From the NCBI RefSeq assembly GCF_056746865.1, contig NZ_JBWKMP010000003.1: a stretch of DNA of 64,000 nt; one strand, given 5' to 3'. A program made the position numbers and the translations under genes. The stretch is from a plasmid. Positions 4,272 through 47,186 of the stretch are shown here, piece after piece. The number at the start of each line of letters is the position of its first letter. The stretch's first letter is position 1. The notes below the pieces were generated by a model. The model did no database searches, was not told where the DNA came from, and worked only from the letters and a program-made list of their open reading frames with translations.

Positions 4272-4423
4272 GGCTATAATCTCCAGTAAACAGGCAGTAT
4301 TGACAAGGATGAAAAATCATGCCTCGAATCAAAGGCTTGAATTTTGAAAATTAACTTATAACTACCCTGTCAGTTTTCTATTTTTCACGTAGCGTTATCT
4401 GTATATAGAGGTTTAATAGTTTC

Positions 4424-5452
4424 ATGGGTGAACTAGTTATCTCCGGCGGTTCTGGTGGTTTTCTGCGCGATATTGGCACCGAATACCAGGAAGCTGCAAA
4501 AAACTTTATGCAGTTCATGAACGACCAGGGAGCTTATGCTCCAAATACGCTTCGAGATCTCCGTCTGGTGTTTCATTCCTGGGCGCGGTGGTGTAATTCG
4601 CGCCAGCGCCCCTGGTTCCCGATTACGCCGGAAATGGCCCGCGAGTATCTTCTCCAGTTGCATGAGGCCGATCTGGCCTCGACCACCATTGATAAGCACT
4701 ATGCCATGCTTAACATGCTGCTTTCGCAATGTGGCCTCCCGCCGCTGTCGGACGATAAAAGTGTGTCTCTGGCCATGCGGCGCATCCGGCGCGAAGCGGC
4801 AACGGAAAAAGGCGAGCGAACAGGCCAGGCTATACCGTTGCGGTGGGATGATCTGAAATTGCTCGACGTGTTGCTGTCCCGTTCCGAGCGGCTGGTGGAC
4901 CTGCGCAATCGGGCGTTTCTCTTCGTGGCATACAATACCCTGATGCGTATGTCAGAAATCTCGCGCATCCGCGTCGGAGATCTGGACCAAACAGGTGACA
5001 CTGTAACGCTGCATATTTCACACACGAAGACCATCACGACCGCCGCCGGACTTGATAAGGTGCTTTCTCGTTACACTACCGCCGTACTGAACGACTGGCT
5101 GGAGGTGTCCGGACTTCGAGAACATCCGGACGCGGTGCTATTCCCGCCAATACACCGCAGTAATAAGGCCAGAATCACGACAACGCCCCTTACTGCACCT
5201 GCAATGGAGAAAATATTCAGCGATGCCTGGGGGTTGCTGAACAAACGAGATGCCACGCCGAACAAAGGAAGATACCGGACGTGGACAGGCCATAGTGCGC
5301 GTGTTGGTGCGGCAATTGATATGGCTGAGAAACAGGTGTCAATGGTCGAGATCATGCAGGAAGGTACATGGAAAAAGCCCGAAACACTTATGCGATATTT
5401 GCGCCGTAGCGGGGCATCCGTTGGTGCAAATAGTCGCCTGATGGACTCATAA
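4424..5452 (+). CDS. dre: Cre-family tyrosine recombinase Dre
   Basis: 342 aa, colinear with Cre from the N-terminus; RHR and catalytic-Tyr region present (TGHSARVGAA..LMRYLR); paired with the rox site. Confidence 0.85.
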   Translation: MGELVISGGSGGFLRDIGTEYQEAAKNFMQFMNDQGAYAPNTLRDLRLVFHSWARWCNSRQRPWFPITPEMAREYLLQLHEADLASTTIDKHYAMLNMLLSQCGLPPLSDDKSVSLAMRRIRREAATEKGERTGQAIPLRWDDLKLLDVLLSRSERLVDLRNRAFLFVAYNTLMRMSEISRIRVGDLDQTGDTVTLHISHTKTITTAAGLDKVLSRYTTAVLNDWLEVSGLREHPDAVLFPPIHRSNKARITTTPLTAPAMEKIFSDAWGLLNKRDATPNKGRYRTWTGHSARVGAAIDMAEKQVSMVEIMQEGTWKKPETLMRYLRRSGASVGANSRLMDS

Positions 5453-5498
5453 ATTAATTTTCTAACAACCTTTTTAGACAGTGCATTTTAATGTAAAG

Positions 5499-5527
5499 TA
5501 CCCTCGCCTATTGCGGAGGGTACTTTG
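5499..5527 (+). terminator. intrinsic terminator after dre
   Basis: GTACCCTCGCC-tatt-GCGGAGGGTAC hairpin followed by TTTG. Confidence 0.5.
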
Positions 5528-5629
5528 CACAATCGTATTACGGAATCAAAACGCTTCACTGTTGACGGTTACACCATAACCTTCACTGCGGGCGTTAAGC
5601 GCGACCAGGCGGTCGTGGTGTTCGGTGTT

Positions 5630-5869
5630 ATGACCGGACTTGATGCCGTTCCCGTATTTACCCTCGAAAAAAACTGGCGAAATCTGGAGGAAGCTGAACG
5701 CTACGTCCGGAAAGTAACCGTCATTGCTGCTGAAAAACTCCTGGCCCACTATCAGGAAAATTATCGCGCTATGACCGAGAAAATTAACCATGTTTTCACT
5801 CGCCCCACCAGCGGCTTCATTGCCCCTGATGCGAATGCCGGGCGCTATCCGGCAAGGGGGCGCAAATGA
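5630..5869 (+). CDS. hypothetical protein (start uncertain)
   Basis: The ORF track's TTG start at 5525 overlaps the dre terminator, so the first in-frame ATG at 5630 is used; stop overlaps the next gene. Confidence 0.3.
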   Translation: MTGLDAVPVFTLEKNWRNLEEAERYVRKVTVIAAEKLLAHYQENYRAMTEKINHVFTRPTSGFIAPDANAGRYPARGRK

Positions 5870-6354
5870 AAACTTACTACCCATCCCTGAACTGTTATCC
5901 AACCACTAATCCTGAGCTGTCAGGGAAACTTCTGTCCCTCCTGGCTGATAGTCCTGATGAATGGCATAAGCCTGGTGATATCAACACACAGTTCCCTGAG
6001 TACGGGTGTATCCGCACCCGAAATGAGCTGAAGAACCTCATTGCTCACGGTTTTGTCCGTCACCGTAGCGGGAAAGGCTATCAGTTGGCTATCCCACAAG
6101 GAGAGGCAAGAGAACTCTTTGGCTATCGAGAAAGCCAGACGCAAGCGCGGGTGATCGCAGAAATTATCCGTAATGGCAGCGTCTATGCCCGCAAATTCTG
6201 GCTGTCTGGCGGTGGTGATGCATCACAGTTCTTGCGTGCTGTGCGATCGCTGGAGGAACAAGGTGTTATCGAGAATACCTGCGTCTCCGTTCCGACCGCT
6301 CCGCATATCAAACGCCGGATTTATACATTTACCCGGAGAGCTAAAAAGCAATGA
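5866..6354 (+). CDS. hypothetical protein
   Basis: ATG with AAGGGGG Shine-Dalgarno; stop overlaps the dut ATG (ATGA). Confidence 0.5.
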   Translation: MKTYYPSLNCYPTTNPELSGKLLSLLADSPDEWHKPGDINTQFPEYGCIRTRNELKNLIAHGFVRHRSGKGYQLAIPQGEARELFGYRESQTQARVIAEIIRNGSVYARKFWLSGGGDASQFLRAVRSLEEQGVIENTCVSVPTAPHIKRRIYTFTRRAKKQ

Positions 6355-6845
6355 TTAACGTGAAAGTGAAACGCCTTCATCCGGCGGCAAAACTCCCCGT
6401 TTACGCCACCGCCGGATCGGCGGCGATGGATTTTGTTGCTGTTGAAATAACGCCGGGTATCGATAGCAACGGCGCTATTTCCTCAAGCTGGTGGGTGCAT
6501 ACCGGCCTCGCTATGGCGATCCCTCCTGGCTGGTGTCTGAAACTTTATCCTCGTTCCGGATTGGGCTGCAAAAAGCATACGCGCCTGGCTAACTGCGTAG
6601 GAATTATCGACTCCGATTATCGCGGTGAAATCAAAGCAAAACTGATTACAGATCCCGGTGGTGAAGGCGTTTGCCTCAAGCCAGGAATGGCGGTCATGCA
6701 AGGCATTTTTGAGCGTGTTGAACCGGTATCGCTGGTAGAAGTTGATGAACTCGATGAAACAGAGCGAGGTGCTGGTGGCTTTGGTAGCACATCGGAAGAC
6801 CGCATTGAAATCAAGCGTACACCGCTTCAGTACGCAAAGTTTTAA
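6351..6845 (+). CDS. dut: dUTP diphosphatase
   Basis: Trimeric dUTPase motifs: AGSAAMDF, YPRSGLG, GIIDSDYRGE, RGAGGFGSTS. Confidence 0.85.
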   Translation: MINVKVKRLHPAAKLPVYATAGSAAMDFVAVEITPGIDSNGAISSSWWVHTGLAMAIPPGWCLKLYPRSGLGCKKHTRLANCVGIIDSDYRGEIKAKLITDPGGEGVCLKPGMAVMQGIFERVEPVSLVEVDELDETERGAGGFGSTSEDRIEIKRTPLQYAKF

Positions 6846-6859
6846 GTAGAGGAAAGGCT

Positions 6860-7510
6860 ATGAATAACATGCCAACGAAAGAGCTTTTTAAGTTCCTTCC
6901 CAAATACAAAGCTCACAAAAACGTTAGTGCATCGAAAATTAAAAATGTTGTTATTTTCGGAGTAACTGATGCCCCACTTTGGGGCTGCATCGAACTCGTT
7001 GAACCAAAAGGGGCAACAGTTTGTGTTGACGCAATGTTTTTACAAAAACACCGACCAAAAACTGGCGGGTATCTGATCGTTTATGAAAACGGTTATCTGT
7101 TCTATGCCCCGGAGAAACCATTTGAGGAATGCTATGGCCTGGTTAACGACGCCTCCAAAAATGGAACCACGGTCATCATTACGGATGACAACGGCGTGAT
7201 GATTAATCTTACTGGGAGCGTAACTATTTCTGCTGGTGGCATCACCACCCAGCAAGAAGAAATCGACCTTGAAGCAGCCGACTTCTCTGATGCGCTAATG
7301 TGGTTGAAGGAAGGCAAGAAAGTTGCCCGACGCGAGTGGAAAGGCGAAAAGCAATTCTGCTGGTTAGTTCTCGCTGGAAGCGTCAATTTACACGGCATTC
7401 ACGTTCCTTATGGTGACCATTTTGTATTGAAAGATGCACAAAATATGGACAGCGTTTGGTTGCCGTCTGTGGATGATTTACTGGCCTGTGACTGGTTTGT
7501 TGTGGAGTGA
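6860..7510 (+). CDS. fusion protein: unknown N-terminal domain plus C-terminal DUF2829 (Tad2-like) domain
   Basis: C-terminal ~75 aa (FSDALMWLKEGKKVARREWKG...WLPSVDDLLACDWFVVE) matches the DUF2829 pattern as recalled; GAGGAAAGG Shine-Dalgarno. Confidence 0.55.
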   Translation: MNNMPTKELFKFLPKYKAHKNVSASKIKNVVIFGVTDAPLWGCIELVEPKGATVCVDAMFLQKHRPKTGGYLIVYENGYLFYAPEKPFEECYGLVNDASKNGTTVIITDDNGVMINLTGSVTISAGGITTQQEEIDLEAADFSDALMWLKEGKKVARREWKGEKQFCWLVLAGSVNLHGIHVPYGDHFVLKDAQNMDSVWLPSVDDLLACDWFVVE

Positions 7511-28857: not shown

Positions 28858-29511
28858 ATGCAAAAGATCGCAATATTCAGTCTTTCTACTAACAAGCCGC
28901 TGATGGCTACGGCAGTCCTGAAAGACGGCGCGCTTGTAATTGACAAAGTAAAGCCGCTCCCTGCATCTGCTATTGAACAAAAACGAAAAATTCCACCAGC
29001 AATTGCCGAGCTGCGTAAAAGTGAATTTAAGGTGCTGGTTGACGAAATCACGCCAACCATTTCAGCCGGTACAGGTGCCAGCCAGGTAACATTAAAAACA
29101 CGGCACGCCGACGGCAGAGCAGCGATCATTGTCGGCATGGAGAGATACCGGGAGCTGAAACTACAAAGGCTGCTATCCCTGCCTGACAAGAACAAAGGGG
29201 CATTTGAGATCCCCGACTCTATCGTCGATACCGAATACAACGGCAACGGTGAAGAGGTTTATCGAGTTAACTGGCAAGATATCCGACCAGAGCACATCCT
29301 GATGATTCTGTGCTGCTATGCAACGGTATACCACAATGTTGCCAGCGCGGATTACCTGAAACAAATGACAGGAGCGGTAGAGAAAGAAAACAAAGCAGGG
29401 ATAATGGCCTCGTTCCTGTCCATTATCAGCGATCAAAAAGCTAAAGCAGGAAATACCCAACCAAAATCGCTGGCCGGGCAAGTAATTGATGAAGATACGG
29501 TGATACTTTAA
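28858..29511 (+). CDS. hypothetical protein
   Basis: 217 aa; ATG with upstream GGAG. Confidence 0.5.
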   Translation: MQKIAIFSLSTNKPLMATAVLKDGALVIDKVKPLPASAIEQKRKIPPAIAELRKSEFKVLVDEITPTISAGTGASQVTLKTRHADGRAAIIVGMERYRELKLQRLLSLPDKNKGAFEIPDSIVDTEYNGNGEEVYRVNWQDIRPEHILMILCCYATVYHNVASADYLKQMTGAVEKENKAGIMASFLSIISDQKAKAGNTQPKSLAGQVIDEDTVIL

Positions 29512-29842
29512 TCAACTCAGTAGCTTTGTTAACTCCCTTAATACCAGGTAGAAGAGTAACAAAAATACTAACGCCAGTATTTGCGTGGTCAACGAGGCGT
29601 TCATAAACAGAACAATTAGCTTTAACAATTCGAGAATAACGTCCATGTCATTCACACTATTTAATTTTTAATCTACAGCCAGCAAACAATGAAGCTGGCC
29701 CCCGCATAAAGATTAATGAAAGTCACTTGTCACCAGTGAGGGGATTTATGAACCACATCCCCCTGAACTGGTGGACTGTCTGTTTCTCGCATTTCACACC
29801 CTGCATACAGTTCCCCCCAGGTTATGACTGTGAGGAACTGTT

Positions 29843-30172
29843 ATGAGTTACAGCAGGCTCGACGATCGATGCATTGAAGACGATGTGCTGCGCGCACTAT
29901 TCCATCAGGAGATGATCAAGCGGGTATCGGAGTACCACTCCGATAATTTCCAGTACACGATAAAAATTGATGAGGTTTATCGCTCAGACCTGGCGGCCTA
30001 TCGCGCCTATGGCAACGCTGATTTGCGCTGGGTATTTCGCGTGCTGGTGGGCCATGAGTCAGAAATGGAAGAAATGCCGGTCGGGACAACGTTAACTCTT
30101 CCTGACGCAGCATGGCTAAGAAACAAGATTCGCGATTACGCTGGCTCGGCACCGGAGATAGAAAATGCCTGA
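29843..30172 (+). CDS. hypothetical protein
   Basis: 109 aa; stop overlaps the next ATG. Confidence 0.45.
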   Translation: MSYSRLDDRCIEDDVLRALFHQEMIKRVSEYHSDNFQYTIKIDEVYRSDLAAYRAYGNADLRWVFRVLVGHESEMEEMPVGTTLTLPDAAWLRNKIRDYAGSAPEIENA

Positions 30173-31361
30173 CTTCCTGAAAAATCAGGACGGGCGATAT
30201 ATCACTGACGGCCTGTCCTCTAAGGATTTCACACGCGTATTTGAACTCATCAGGAAAGAGCAAAACCGCAAACGCCGCCAGGCGAACAGGACACTCACGC
30301 CGGGCAGGCTTAGGAATAAATCAGCCGAAGACATTCTTAAGCTGGGGAAAAAGAAAGGCGGCACGTTCTTTACGCGTGACGATCTGAAAGGCTTCGAAAA
30401 GCTGCGAAGCAAAGCACGCGAAAAATATGACAGCAAGACGGCTGGCATTACATACGCACAACTGGTAGCGTCCAGCCAGGCTATCGATATTAAGCGAGCA
30501 AATAACGCCGTAGACGACGGTTCTGGTATCAAAAGAGCTACGCCCGTATCTCTTCGTCACAATGTGATTAATATCCGCGTGGAAGCGTCCGATATATCCG
30601 TTCACCAGCACCACATTGTCCGGGTACGTTTTGAAGAATGGGATCAGATGGTCGATGACATCGCAGAAGACGATAAATCAGCCCTGAAAGTCACAAAATC
30701 ACTGTGTGCCGGGCGAGTGTCTTTCGACTGTGACTGCGGTCGCCATCAATACTGGTATCGCTACATCGCCACTGCGGGTAACTTTGCCCTGGCCCCGCCA
30801 AAAGAATACGCCTATCCAAAAGTTCGCAACCCTAAGCTGCAAGGCGTCGCCTGTAAACATGTGATCCACTCAATGACACGACTACAGTCTGCCAGTTGGC
30901 AGATGAGTATTGCTCGTGCGCTACAAAAGGCTGCAACGCAAATTGCATTTGGTGACGATCGCCGCCGTACAACCAAACACTTCTCAAAAGAAGACGAGAA
31001 GGAGTTTAATCGCAATCGTAGCAGTAAAACGAACGTTGAAGCCGCCAAACGCGAATGGAGGCTCTATCAGAAGCGCCAGGCAGCTTTAAGTACAAAACTG
31101 GCGAAGGACAACGGCAAGATCGACAAGCTACGTGACCAACTGACCAGGGCCAGAAAGTTGTCAGACGCACAGAAAAAACGAGCGGCAGCAAAAGAAGCGG
31201 CCTTGCAACGTGAGAAACAGAAAAACAAGGAGCTTCAGCAACGCCTTGCCGATCAGTTCGCACTGAAGAAGCAGGCGTTCATTGATGCGCTGGTCATGGC
31301 AGGAACGTCACCTGGGCAAGCTGAAAAAATGTTTATGGAGTACGTGAAGAAAGGTTCTTGA
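30165..31361 (+). CDS. SWIM-zinc-finger-like protein with basic coiled-coil C-terminus
   Basis: CDCGRHQYW...CKHVIH fits the CxCx(n)CxH pattern; C-terminal ~120 aa Lys/Arg/Gln-rich. Confidence 0.45.
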   Translation: MPDFLKNQDGRYITDGLSSKDFTRVFELIRKEQNRKRRQANRTLTPGRLRNKSAEDILKLGKKKGGTFFTRDDLKGFEKLRSKAREKYDSKTAGITYAQLVASSQAIDIKRANNAVDDGSGIKRATPVSLRHNVINIRVEASDISVHQHHIVRVRFEEWDQMVDDIAEDDKSALKVTKSLCAGRVSFDCDCGRHQYWYRYIATAGNFALAPPKEYAYPKVRNPKLQGVACKHVIHSMTRLQSASWQMSIARALQKAATQIAFGDDRRRTTKHFSKEDEKEFNRNRSSKTNVEAAKREWRLYQKRQAALSTKLAKDNGKIDKLRDQLTRARKLSDAQKKRAAAKEAALQREKQKNKELQQRLADQFALKKQAFIDALVMAGTSPGQAEKMFMEYVKKGS

Positions 31362-31395
31362 TTGACAACAAAGGCGGTCATACAGACCGCCGAAC

Positions 31396-31776
31396 TCATA
31401 CACCAACCAGGCTTTCAAGAGGAATGCCAAACTGGGAATGTAAACGACGAATCATAGGTAACGTTAAATTTCGTGTTCCATTTAGCACTTCGTAAACACG
31501 ATTTGACTTACCAATCGCCGGTTCCAGATCCTTCACGGTCAGCCCTTGCTGTTCCATACGGAATTTAATGGCCTCAATAGGTGATGGTGGCTCAATTGGG
31601 TAATGTTTTTTCTCGTACTCCTCAATGAGAAGACACATGACCTCAAAGAAATCACCTTCCGGGGTGTTCATTTCCGGTTCGTTATCGAACATCGGTTCGA
31701 CCGCACGCAGTGCGGCCTCATAATCTTGTTCTGTACGGATAGGTTTAATGTTCATTAATTCCAAAGGAAAGCCCAC
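31396..31776 (-). CDS. HigA/YgjM-like HTH protein (extra antitoxin-like regulator)
   Basis: MNIKPIRTEQDYEAALRAVE.. N-domain plus C-terminal HTH (GKSNRVYEVLNGTRNLTL). Confidence 0.5.
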   Translation of the reverse strand: MGFPLELMNIKPIRTEQDYEAALRAVEPMFDNEPEMNTPEGDFFEVMCLLIEEYEKKHYPIEPPSPIEAIKFRMEQQGLTVKDLEPAIGKSNRVYEVLNGTRNLTLPMIRRLHSQFGIPLESLVGV

Positions 31777-31805
31777 TTGTTAAGTGGGCTTTTTGTATGT
31801 GTTTA
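31777..31805. terminator. bidirectional-looking hairpin
   Basis: AAAGCCCACTT-gtta-AAGTGGGCTTTTT. Confidence 0.35.
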
Positions 31806-31811
31806 ACTATA

Positions 31812-32150
31812 TCAGGCTGCTTTTTTATTCAGGTTCCGCTGAGAAATAAATTTTTCAGCAGTATTGATACGACTTAACTCTTCCTGAACGCGCATATCAT
31901 TTTCGACTTCCCACAGGTCTACTGCGGTCTGAAGATTAATCCAAAAATCTACAGAAGTATCGAATGCTTTTGCCAGGCGATATGCCATATCCATCGTTAG
32001 CTTACGATTGTTATTAACAAGAGCACTTACGGTGTTACGATGAACATGAAGTATTTCTGCTAACTCGTTGATCTTAAGCTCTAACGGCTCCAGGTATTCG
32101 TACAGCAGGATATCACCTACAGTCGTCGGTTTTCTGGTTGCCTGTTTCAT
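31812..32150 (-). CDS. higA: HigA antitoxin (HTH_XRE)
   Basis: TVGDILLYEYLEPLELKINELA...DFWINLQTAVDLWEVEN follows the HigA pattern; immediately downstream of higB. Confidence 0.7.
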   Translation of the reverse strand: MKQATRKPTTVGDILLYEYLEPLELKINELAEILHVHRNTVSALVNNNRKLTMDMAYRLAKAFDTSVDFWINLQTAVDLWEVENDMRVQEELSRINTAEKFISQRNLNKKAA

Positions 32151-32221
32151 TTTTTGCCCTTACTAGCGTGCGTATTAAGTGGACTCTGGTCAGTACCTGG
32201 CCCATCCGCCGGGTATTTGTT

Positions 32222-32524
32222 TTAGTATTTGTGAGGGTCGAGATACAAGTCCTCGGCCTTTCCGTTAACCCACTTAAAAATTAACCTGTATTGCTTATTC
32301 ACCCTTATTGATGAATAGCCGTTTAGCTTCCCTGACAATTCCTCATACCGATTACCTGGTGGTGATCTCAAGTCCTTCCAAGTAGTTGCAGCATTGATAA
32401 TATCCAGCTTCCGCAACAATGTAATCTGAATATCAGAAGGTATCTTTTTGTGTGGTATTGAAAATTCAAAAAAATCATCAAGCCACTCATCCCTGAAATT
32501 CTTTATGTTAATCTTTTTGCTCAT
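32222..32524 (-). CDS. higB: HigB toxin (RelE/ParE superfamily)
   Basis: 100 aa; C-terminal RVNKQYRLIFKWVNGKAEDLYLDPHKY matches the HigB pattern. Confidence 0.7.
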   Translation of the reverse strand: MSKKINIKNFRDEWLDDFFEFSIPHKKIPSDIQITLLRKLDIINAATTWKDLRSPPGNRYEELSGKLNGYSSIRVNKQYRLIFKWVNGKAEDLYLDPHKY

Positions 32525-32687
32525 CGATCATTTTATCCTCCATGATTATTAATGAATGTCATAATGATAGCGCACTGTTGCACCGTGCGCAAGTGCATAT
32601 TGTAACAATTCCCCTCCTCCATCCAAAATCACAATCTCCCGAAAATCTTCCTTTCGATACCTGATAAATCGACCTTTGAGGACGCTT

Positions 32688-33482
32688 ATGGGCCGTTTTG
32701 ATGAATGGCTTGCTGATGATGCAAGCCTGATGAGAAAGGGAACAGAACATGACAGCACGCAGAGAGAAGAGACAACGACGGTTGAAGCGAATGAAGGAAG
32801 CACAACGGAAAATGGGAAGGTCAGTACAGGGCCATTCAGTATTCTGGAAGAACACGCTGCCACCGAAGCAGATAGCCGCCATGATAATTGGCCTGATAAT
32901 GCTGGTGACTCTGTTACGGAAGTGATTGAACCTGACATCGCCCCCCTACCGGCATCGCTCGCTAACAGAGAACCAAACCAGCAGCTTAAAACCCGATATA
33001 ACGGACACAAAGCGTTCAACGACCAGATCCGCGCCGATTGGATGCTCATTATTGAATCAAGCCCTGACGCATTCGAGGCGCTTTTATATCGCCCGGCTGA
33101 TGGCACCTATGGCGTCGTAAACGATGAAACAGGTGAAGAGTCATTCACGCAACTGGACAACAACCAGCGTGAGCTTACCTATCTGGAACCGGAAATCGTA
33201 TACGTCCTGGACAACCCGGACGGAAGGGATTCGTTTCATGCCATTGATGCCGATGGAGAACAGGATGGTCTTGCTGATGAAGTGCTAATCCTGCGTATTG
33301 CTGCAAACAACGTACCTGTTGGTTCAATCCTGGAATGGAACGAAGAAATGGCGAATGGCCTCGCCCGCCGCTGGTGGTACGTGCACCGAATCTTCAGCTA
33401 CGGAACACAACACGTCGGCTCCCTTTATTACTGCATCCCGGCCAGGAACTTTGATACCACTCAAAACGGAGTGATCGAATGA
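32688..33482 (+). CDS. hypothetical protein (virion module)
   Basis: Start at ATG 32688 rather than the track's alternative start; first gene of a four-gene overlapping chain. Confidence 0.4.
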   Translation: MGRFDEWLADDASLMRKGTEHDSTQREETTTVEANEGSTTENGKVSTGPFSILEEHAATEADSRHDNWPDNAGDSVTEVIEPDIAPLPASLANREPNQQLKTRYNGHKAFNDQIRADWMLIIESSPDAFEALLYRPADGTYGVVNDETGEESFTQLDNNQRELTYLEPEIVYVLDNPDGRDSFHAIDADGEQDGLADEVLILRIAANNVPVGSILEWNEEMANGLARRWWYVHRIFSYGTQHVGSLYYCIPARNFDTTQNGVIE

Positions 33483-45488: not shown

Positions 45489-47186
45489 GTGAACAAGAAC
45501 ATTGAGCCAGCTCGTAAGCGCGAGCGCGAGATTATGAATCGGGCGGCAAGCGTCATGGCTATGACCGTCGATCCAACCACTGATGCTGCCGGTAACATGA
45601 TTACCGACAACGAAGTGATGATGGCTAACCTGGAAAAAGCTATCCAGAAAGAGCCAATGTTTGAAGGCGTTGGACCAGAAGCAGCTCGCCAGATCATTGG
45701 TAGCTGGGCCATGTCTATTCATGAATACAAACGCCAGCATGGGCATTATCCGGCAAGCGATGTATTAGCCAACGCCCATGTAGCACTTGAGCGCCTGATG
45801 ATGGAGTCCGCTAAAGAGACGCATGAAGGCGCTGGCAAAGCCATGTTTGAATCAGTAGCCAAGGACATGCGCACCTCCGATGGTGTAATGAAGGTTGCAC
45901 AATATGCCGCACTGATCCTGCCTGCTTCTCTCGGCGCAGCCACCAGCGACGCATGTACGTTTATCCCTTGTGATCGTGATGAAACCAATATTTACGAGCT
46001 GACCAACGTTGCTGGTACAAAATTCGGTACATTCGAGCAGGGCGATGAACTGAACATGCAGTCTGCTGGCGTGTATTCGCAGATGAAACGCCTGTACATC
46101 CTGACCGAAAAAGGCGATGGCAGCAAAACCACCTTCCAGTTTGATATCCAGAACTTCGAAGGCCAGGCCTGCCCGCTGCGCCAGGGCTACAACAAACTGC
46201 TGATTAACCGCAAACCGTCCAAAGTAGATGATGGTGACGGCAACCTGTATTTCAACGACAAAGACGTCAACGGCAACTCTTTCTCTGCTACAGCAAAAGT
46301 TAAATACGATACCGGCGTTATCGATATCACCTTTAATGAAGCACCAGCAGAAGGCACAGAAATCGCTGTTCAGGTTGAAATCAACATTGAACGCAATCCG
46401 AGCCTGATACCAGTCATTAACCAGTCCATGCGCAATTACGCCCTGCGCCCGTCGCAGTACGTGATCGCATCCGAACATACGGTTATGACAGCATCTGACC
46501 TGAGCCGTGAACACGGACTCGAACTGGCAGCATTGCAATTCTCCGCAATGCGCAACTGGATTTCCCACGAAATCGATATGATGCGCCTGCGCACTCTGGT
46601 ATTCCACACAGTTTACGGTCGTGAATTTGATGTGGCACTGCCAGAAGCGCAGAACTACGAATCGTGGGTTGGTTTAATTCGCCATGTAGTGAACGCGCTG
46701 TCACAGGACATGGCTGACCGCACCCTGACTACCGGTATCCGTGGTGGCTTTGCTGGTGGCGATGCTGCTAACTTCCTGCGTTCCTTACCGCCGCAGCACT
46801 TCCAGTTGGCACCGGGCTATGTACAGTCGCCGTACATTCAATACATCGGCACCCTGTTTGGTTCCATTCGTATCTACGAAGTGCCGAAGCCTATCTGCAA
46901 ACAATTCCAGGAACATGGCTACGACTTTGGCCTGGACGACATCTACTTCTATGGTCGTGGCGAAGGCATTGGTAAAGCTGGCCTGGTCGCTGGTGATGCT
47001 GTGCCTGCTATTCCGTATGTCCACGAAACAAATCCAGCCCTGGTAAACCGCACCACTCTTTGGGGTACAGCAATCAACGATGTGCATCCGCGCAACGGTG
47101 AGAACTATTTCACTCGCCTTCGCCTGACACGTTCGAAAGAAGGTGCGATTGACATGTTGAGCGGGCAAATCAACGAAAAAAAGTAG
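45489..47186 (+). CDS. putative major head protein
   Basis: 565 aa; GTG start; first gene of the late structural block. Size and position fit P1 gp23, but no motif evidence. Confidence 0.4.
   Translation: MNKNIEPARKREREIMNRAASVMAMTVDPTTDAAGNMITDNEVMMANLEKAIQKEPMFEGVGPEAARQIIGSWAMSIHEYKRQHGHYPASDVLANAHVALERLMMESAKETHEGAGKAMFESVAKDMRTSDGVMKVAQYAALILPASLGAATSDACTFIPCDRDETNIYELTNVAGTKFGTFEQGDELNMQSAGVYSQMKRLYILTEKGDGSKTTFQFDIQNFEGQACPLRQGYNKLLINRKPSKVDDGDGNLYFNDKDVNGNSFSATAKVKYDTGVIDITFNEAPAEGTEIAVQVEINIERNPSLIPVINQSMRNYALRPSQYVIASEHTVMTASDLSREHGLELAALQFSAMRNWISHEIDMMRLRTLVFHTVYGREFDVALPEAQNYESWVGLIRHVVNALSQDMADRTLTTGIRGGFAGGDAANFLRSLPPQHFQLAPGYVQSPYIQYIGTLFGSIRIYEVPKPICKQFQEHGYDFGLDDIYFYGRGEGIGKAGLVAGDAVPAIPYVHETNPALVNRTTLWGTAINDVHPRNGENYFTRLRLTRSKEGAIDMLSGQINEKK

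Follow-up and report, generated by a model that had tools for sequence, protein, structure and literature searches.

The proteins of the phage P1 virion have been named from head to baseplate in a whole-virion cryo-EM study (PMC12810830), and the products of several genes surrounding P1 gene 25 have been assigned places in the particle. P1 gp26 is a six-fold baseplate "plug" that resembles T4 gp53 and fastens the wedges to the hub (preprint 10.1101/2025.07.21.665459; PMC12810830), while gp7 is the hexameric stopper of the neck and gp24 is the tail terminator (PMC12810830; PMC10304247). The product of gene 25 is absent from the list given by the whole-virion study (PMC12810830), is not named in a further report on P1 (PMC10304247), and is not among the P1 proteins modelled in the preprint (10.1101/2025.07.21.665459). 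In LC-MS/MS of CsCl-purified P1 virions, two gp25 peptides were recovered, giving 8.4% coverage, and HHpred gave the protein no function (PMC9024508). The same analysis likewise recovered two peptides of gp7 (PMC9024508), though gp7 forms a six-copy ring in the virion (PMC12810830). Gene 25 was discovered via amber mutants (PMC10695390) and is accordingly regarded as essential. When a CRISPRi roadblock was placed on gene 25, plating fell only to 0.11, and there was no polarity on the genes downstream, which the authors of that study blame on an ineffective block (PMC10695390). The annotation of P1 classes genes 7 and 25 under "tail stability", gene 24 under "baseplate or tail stability", and gene 26 under "baseplate"; the tail phenotype of 25-amber mutants, as we use it here, is based on this annotation and on secondary citations. 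A similarity to myosin rods is also noted in the P1 annotation of gene 25. In Escherichia phage D6, the corresponding gene is orf74, described in the D6 record as "similar to P1 gene 25".

The window analyzed here is a stretch of 64,000 nucleotides from a plasmid (contig NZ_JBWKMP010000003.1 of assembly GCF_056746865.1). The open reading frame at positions 30165..31361 (plus strand, as for all features given with coordinates below) runs from ATG to TGA and encodes a protein of 398 aa, with a mass of 45.5 kDa and a pI of 10.1. This gene is the orthologue of P1 gene 25 and D6 orf74, and belongs to the D6 lineage. The profile of PHROG 1722 ("tail protein"), the "tail stability" family, matches the protein over its full length (E 7.1e-195, residues 2-396 against profile positions 3-403 of 410). 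In tblastn comparisons, the protein shows 97% identity to D6 orf74 and 56% identity to P1 gp25, both in full-length alignments, and the DNA of the window segment is 92% identical to that of phage D6. Scans of the window protein against Pfam and NCBIfam gave no matches, and among the anti-phage defence profiles of PADLOC, no family matched at E<=0.01. E. coli, Salmonella, and Shigella carry the same segment on 122 non-mobilizable plasmids, about 75-95 kb in size. The original prediction called the combination of a zinc-finger motif and a basic tail encoded here unfamiliar in phage-plasmids. This is not borne out: as the orthologue of P1 gene 25, the gene is a core late gene of P1-like phage-plasmids, of which P1 is the archetype, and therefore no oddity, having been both known and annotated before.

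The genes around gene 25 in the window are orthologues of P1 genes 26, 7, 24, and 6. The gene 26 orthologue, encoding the T4 gp53-like baseplate plug, lies directly upstream at 29843..30172 (PHROG 1269, E 1e-35) and is translationally coupled to gene 25; the two share 8 nt (ATGCCTGA) that span the ATG of gene 25 and the stop of gene 26. The gene 7 orthologue, encoding the neck stopper, lies downstream at 32676..33482 (PHROG 1906, E 1e-110). Searches of the PDB with the window orthologues returned P1 chains for gp24 (8jan), gp7 (9ums), and gp26 (9ay5/9vzk), whereas the same kind of sequence search with gp25 and with its family profile returned a chance match and low-complexity noise only, and no gp25 chain. 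With neither an assigned density nor a deposited chain, gp25 does not appear in the virion structures as an ordered subunit of tail, neck, or baseplate. The 26-25-7-24-6-5 late operon encodes six proteins, and the recent whole-virion structures of P1 place all of them but gp25. The gene, defined by amber mutants decades ago, is a well-defined orphan among the classical morphogenesis genes of P1 rather than an anomaly. P1 gene 25 and D6 orf74 occupy the same operon position after gene 26 as the window gene. The spacing downstream differs, as genes 25 and 7 are 4 nt apart in P1, whereas in the D6 lineage and in the window a minus-strand toxin-antitoxin/HTH cassette stands between them, and in the window this 1.3-kb insertion displaces gene 7 from gene 25. 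Upstream of gene 26, an alignment with the LP26 region of P1 is too diverged to call a P1-type late promoter.

The gp25 family extends well beyond this lineage. At E<=1e-3, an exhaustive search with the core profile retrieved 943 cluster representatives, of which 265 remain at E<=1e-30; they come from Enterobacterales, Acinetobacter, Xanthomonas, and metagenomes. Among the matches listed, proteins are about 320-450 aa, or more widely about 270-500 aa, long, with the core at about residues 55-270 and the same overall layout, and a Pfam scan of 47 relatives showed no informative domain fusions. We compared the gene neighborhoods of 89 loci, with neighboring open reading frames classified by iterated profiles. 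They include 80 IMG/VR contigs, most of which measure 75-95 kb, along with the window, D6, P1, Xanthomonas phage Rb1, Acinetobacter phage ABMM1, and three contexts from metagenomes or genomes; these loci hold 81 distinct genes and are a phylogenetically non-independent set. A gp26-like gene (PHROG 1269) lies directly upstream of the gp25-like gene in 85 of the 89 loci. Directly downstream is a gp7-like gene in 37 loci and a gene of about 160 aa assigned to phrog_4597 in 49, which together account for 86 of the 89. Across the 81 distinct genes, the start or stop of the neighboring gene falls within 12 nt in 82% of cases upstream and in 91% downstream. Whether phrog_4597 is a diverged gp7 stopper was approached by pairwise BLASTP, which gave no match, and by hhalign, which aligned 146 columns with a probability of 10.8% (E 0.003). 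The arrangements seen include mat-26-25-7-24-6, 24-26-25-p4597-MCP, and 26-25-p4597-portal. Given the kinship among these loci, the meaningful point is that the trio persists while its flanks are rearranged. A universally basic gp25 locked between plug and stopper genes is absent from the literature examined.

The original prediction singled out a CDCGRHQYW...CKHVIH peptide with the CxC...CxH pattern of SWIM domains, and we find it as FDC189-D-C191-GRHQYW...VAC230-K-H232-VIH. Its ligands are encoded at 30729-31, 30735-37, 30852-54, and 30858-60, in a protein with a total of four cysteines. The motif is genuine, far beyond chance, and strongly selected. A CxC-x(6-45)-CxH pattern arises in only 2 of 20,000 shuffles of the window protein, and no variation is seen at C189, C191, C230, K231, and H232 in 30 relatives or in 47 relatives at 22-44% identity. 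When representatives of separate 50%-identity clusters are considered, 149 of 150 carry the motif, and the spacer measures 37-38 residues in 143. Such a spacer exceeds the classical SWIM range. The codons of C189-D-C191 (30729..30737), the first half of the putative zinc site, are invariant in three family alignments. The second half is held by the stretch E214-x3-P218-K219-x2-N222-P223-x-L225-x-G227-x2-C230-K231-H232 (30804..30860), which is conserved more strongly than any other part of the protein; E214, P218, N222, G227, C230, K231, and H232 are invariant columns in the 47 relatives, and K219, P223, and L225 are nearly so. It is most likely that the four invariant residues C189, C191, C230, and H232 together hold one zinc ion.

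These residues are embedded in a core spanning aa 121-262 (30525..30950), predicted to consist of a three-stranded sheet, an inserted helical hairpin, a strand ending in CxC, a helix, a conserved loop, and a helix starting at CKH. In the predicted secondary structure, the sheet strands are at 122-131, 134-141, and 149-156, followed by a strand at 185-189 that ends at C189, with C191 in the turn after it, and C230 and H232 open a helix at 231-239. The prediction thus fits the SWIM layout, with its CxC-bearing strand and its helix starting at CxH. The original prediction depended on a zinc-finger fold, and one is predicted: human ZSWIM8 (PDB 9rwz) is the best fold match in the PDB for both predicted models. 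Of the profile and structure searches proposed along with it, the fold part therefore came out in its favor and the profile part did not, since the SWIM profile PF04434 gave no match to the window protein even at E<=10, and its curated threshold was not reached. Among relatives, PF04434 appears only below threshold (in 2 of 30 and 10 of 47, best E 0.041); it is, at the same time, the sole Pfam family that recurs among diverse relatives, the remaining matches being scattered coiled-coil noise. Foldseek searches against BFVD gave matches at probability 1.0 (E 8e-6 to 5e-4), including phage proteins that UniProt calls "SWIM-type domain-containing", and Acinetobacter members of the gp25 family are named SWIM-type in UniRef. 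From the sub-threshold PF04434 matches, the ZSWIM8 fold, the names attached to Foldseek and UniRef entries, and the secondary structure, we therefore describe the core as a divergent, extended SWIM-type module. It shares with the SWIM domain (PF04434; ZSWIM8) the CxC...CxH ligands, the position of CxC at the end of a strand, and that of CxH at the start of a helix. Two features set it apart from the classical domain: the CxC strand is preceded by an inserted helical hairpin (159-182), and the spacer, fixed at 37-38 residues, consists of a helix followed by the conserved loop from E214 to H232. An invariant SWIM-type core with a fixed conserved insert across a large family is absent from the literature examined, and literature searches joining SWIM with phage P1 or with the virion found no paper linking them.

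The core is flanked by basic helical regions on both sides. The N-terminal region (aa 1-112, 30165..30500) includes an Arg-rich helix at 19-40 (KEQNRKRRQANR), and AlphaFold2 (AF2) predicts helices at 19-40, 46-50, 54-59, 71-87, 97-102, and 106-112. The net charge of aa 1-120 is +12, and across the 47 relatives, G94 is invariant and R37 and G61 are nearly invariant. On the other side, a long basic helical tail spans aa 286-378 (31020..31298), with AF2 helices at 291-313 and 318-378 and a further one at 383-397 (mean pLDDT 83.7). Residues 286-398 contain 28 Lys and Arg against 13 Asp and Glu, together with 11 Gln, for a net charge of +15. The original prediction of a Lys/Arg/Gln-rich helical tail is therefore confirmed by composition and AF2 helices, but its description as a coiled coil is not: the heptad score, a crude test, was reached by 239 of 1000 shuffles, with a fairly regular column of a-position residues (V, W, Q, L, I, L, S, A, L, N, L). 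Residues 333-360 resemble a charged single alpha-helix, and AF2 predicts one helix of 60 residues here. The C-terminal end (31260..31358) forms a helix-Gly-helix in which F372, A375, G380, and A386 are nearly invariant columns in the alignment of 30 relatives. It is weakly SHOCT-like, as PF09851 (SHOCT) matches 2 of 47 relatives (best E 0.005) and does not match the window protein.

The basic character is shared by the whole family. Among the 149 motif-bearing representatives, the whole-protein pI is above 9 in all (median 10.05), and every core carries a net positive charge (median +14). The same holds for the tail in 98.7% of representatives, the medians being +13 for charge and 10.2 for pI. 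In the window, the contrast with neighboring gene products is marked, with a pI of 10.1 for gp25 versus 4.9 for gp26, 4.4 for gp7, and 5.6 for gp24. A basic charge conserved across the family argues for binding to a polyanion, which could be DNA or RNA, or else the acidic surfaces of structural neighbors. Nucleic-acid binding by gp25 is plausible, and we treat it as a putative activity.

We tentatively favor, as a possibility somewhat short of even, a role of gene 25 as a late morphogenesis gene whose product is an accessory factor at the completion of the tail and its joining to the head, at the terminator-stopper end. The gene is co-translated with that of the baseplate plug (gp26) and, ancestrally, with that of the neck stopper (gp7). 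Its product has three parts: Arg-rich helices at the N-terminus, then the extended SWIM-type module, and finally a long, strongly basic helix whose C-terminal end is small and conserved. We infer that gp25 is not a lattice-forming subunit of the tail; its presence in a few disordered copies, or only transiently, seems more likely. It may act as the tail is completed and joined to the head, where the terminator (gp24) meets the stopper (gp7). The zinc module would offer a rigid surface for docking. An acidic partner would be bound by the basic helix, and this could be the packaged DNA, at its end within the neck channel, or the acidic neighbors gp26, gp7, and gp24. For experiments, the four ligand residues, and gp26, gp7, gp24, and the DNA ends as candidate partners, provide handles. 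A parallel in role only may be drawn with T4 gp51 and T4 gp26, non-virion tail assembly factors cited by Gonzales et al. (2022; PMC9024508), which are needed for properly formed tails and are not ordered parts of the finished ones.

Several other readings of these observations were weighed against this one. Unassigned proteins such as this one may, as Gonzales et al. suggest, be chaperones or cofactors (PMC9024508), and gp25 could be a non-virion assembly chaperone for the acidic plug gp26, the glue between wedges and hub, delivering it or locking it. Without gp25, the baseplate would be poorly latched and sheaths would contract prematurely, giving rise to the "tail stability" phenotype. The description of gp26 as attaching the wedges to the central region of the baseplate (PMC12810830) is in line with this, as are the complementary charges of acidic gp26 (pI 4.9) and basic gp25 (pI 10.1) and the fact that gp25 is missing from all solved structures of P1. 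The adjacency of gp26-like and gp25-like genes (85 of 89 loci, at 12 nt or less in 82%, with an 8-nt overlap in the window) is a further point in its favor, and this tight 26-25 coupling fits a chaperone equally well. However, the coupling of gp25 to the downstream stopper gene is equally tight (91%), the P1 annotation places gene 26 under "baseplate" and gene 25 under "tail stability" alongside the stopper and terminator genes, and two gp25 peptides were present in CsCl-purified virions (PMC9024508). We regard the chaperone as the main rival, though a less probable reading and on the whole a rather doubtful one. The peptides from virions, a low-copy signal to which no ordered density has been assigned, would instead suit a pilot protein, of which a few copies bind, in the neck, to one or both ends of the packaged DNA and are injected with it, protecting or bridging the ends. 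Such a protein would be a functional analogue of T4 gp2, the DNA end protector involved in head completion, and not its homologue. The universally basic character of the family would be expected of it, T4 gp2 having the identical pI of 10.1, and the putative zinc module is joined to a long helix that could dimerize. The position of the gene between those of a gp53-type plug and a head-completion protein is also comparable, as T4 gp2 is likewise a low-copy protein encoded beside gp53-type plug and head-completion genes. The likeness has its limits, in that T4 gp2 has no cysteines and T4 genes 3, 2, and 4, which abut gene 53, are transcribed divergently from it. When the alignment of the gp25 family was compared by hhalign with T4 gp2, gp3, and gp4 and with Mu N, no relationship was found; the probability was 0.1% for T4 gp2 and 0.1% also for Mu N (gp43, DNA circularization), which is an acidic protein with a pI of 5.05. 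This lack of sequence similarity, and the morphological tail defect reported in the P1 annotation, which would be unexpected for an end protector, make a pilot protein unlikely. We give still less credence to the more specific proposal of a DNA-end protein common to the P1 family, a zinc-finger analogue of T4 gp2, a few copies of which would be disordered on the packaged DNA end in the neck channel and leave with the DNA, shielding or bridging its ends in the recipient cell. If it were true, gp25 would be a candidate for the protein that, according to reports dating from 1965 and 1980, is carried on P1 transducing DNA and on the circles of abortively transduced DNA.

Two readings remain. The original prediction implied a nucleic-acid-binding factor, and a free-standing regulator of late gene expression would agree with a basic protein whose motif resembles a zinc finger and which is not among the ordered subunits of the virion. 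We consider it very improbable, as the gene lies among structural genes, with translational coupling to them throughout the family, gp25 peptides occur in purified virions (PMC9024508), the annotated mutant phenotype is specific to tails with no general defect in late genes, and no regulator family was matched in Pfam, NCBIfam, or PADLOC. A scaffolding or other assembly protein of the head was also entertained. P1 has no identified scaffold, and in Xanthomonas phage Rb1, in Acinetobacter phage ABMM1, and at many of the IMG/VR loci, the distantly related gp25-like gene is followed by phrog_4597 and then by the major capsid protein (MCP) or portal gene. However, the P1 MCP has its own cleaved N-terminal domain, and the annotated phenotype concerns tails and not heads. 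Elsewhere (locus L006 and the P1/D6 type), the genes for the terminator, hub, and spike come after the same trio, and proximity to head genes is therefore not a conserved trait. With the trio adjoining tail genes of this kind in other lineages, the head-scaffold idea is scarcely credible and was dropped.

An accessory factor in tail completion thus remains the reading we tentatively prefer, and SWIM-type proteins of other phages offer a comparison for its core. Achromobacter phage Motura (A0A514CSJ7) and Burkholderia phage BcepSauron (A0A482MLT0) encode proteins that match the core model in Foldseek at probability 1.0, with E values from 1.5e-4 to 5.4e-4 and TM scores of 0.4-0.6. These SWIM-type proteins are 139-223 aa long, show 11-17% identity to gp25, and differ from it in being without the basic helical tail. 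An automatic SWIM-type label is already attached to some members of the gp25 family in UniRef.

The late operon of the window is interrupted between gene 25, the orthologue of the tail stability gene of phage P1 (window 30165-31361, plus strand), and gene 7, the neck stopper gene (32676-33482, plus strand), by a cassette on the minus strand (31396-32524). Whereas in P1 the two genes are separated by 4 nt, in the window three genes lie between them, encoding an HTH protein of 126 aa, a HigA-like antitoxin and a HigB/RelE-like toxin. Of the 402 positions of the PADLOC PD-Lambda-2_B profile, the HTH protein matches 1-119 (E 7e-43). An extra ORF of ~730-800 bp, which adjoins gene 25 in D6 and in some plasmids, is absent from the window. 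A GC-rich hairpin (GGCGGTC-TGTAT-GACCGCC, 31373-31391) is present 12 nt past the stop codon of gene 25, and because a T-run comes after it on the minus strand, with none after it on the plus strand, the hairpin looks like the terminator of the convergent cassette.

Where P1-type genomes have the neck stopper gp7, other genomes carry in exactly that slot a phrog_4597 family protein of ~160-180 aa, found in 49 of the 89 gp25-family loci compared, including Xanthomonas phage Rb1 (8884-9387 of its locus) and two further loci, L003 (5699-6247) and L005 (3005-3478). The two proteins are mutually exclusive across the compared loci, and a profile-profile comparison between them is weak (probability 10.8%, E 0.003, over 146 columns). 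The phrog_4597 protein may be a diverged or an alternative stopper.

Upstream of gene 26, the baseplate plug gene (29843-30172, plus strand), the window carries a gene for a phrog_1837 protein (28858-29511), annotated in D6 as "similar to P1 gene mat", a maturation control protein. About 40 of the 89 loci have this gene upstream of gene 26, and in a distant metagenomic phage (L006, 6993-7670) it lies directly between the large terminase gene and gene 26. Two inverted repeats, GTCACTTGTCACCAGTGA and GGGGAT-N11-ATCCCC, are also present upstream of gene 26 (29722-29765), and they may be regulatory. Both are conserved in D6; they cannot be aligned with the P1 LP26 late-promoter region, and by comparison with that region no late promoter could be called upstream of gene 26 in the window.

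The capsid protein of Rb1 (phrog_1014) matches the product of window 45726-47105 (plus strand; 21% identity, E 4e-17), presumably a major capsid gene of the P1 gene 23 type, and this match shows both phages, Rb1 and ABMM1, to be distant P1-like myophages. Between its portal and gp25-like genes, Rb1 encodes a 948-aa protein (4301-7147) that may be Sit-like, since it contains a glycine-zipper region and resembles tape-measure proteins and lysins. The place expected for gene 26, between the gene for this protein and the gp25-like gene, is occupied in Rb1 by a lipoprotein-like ORF on the minus strand.
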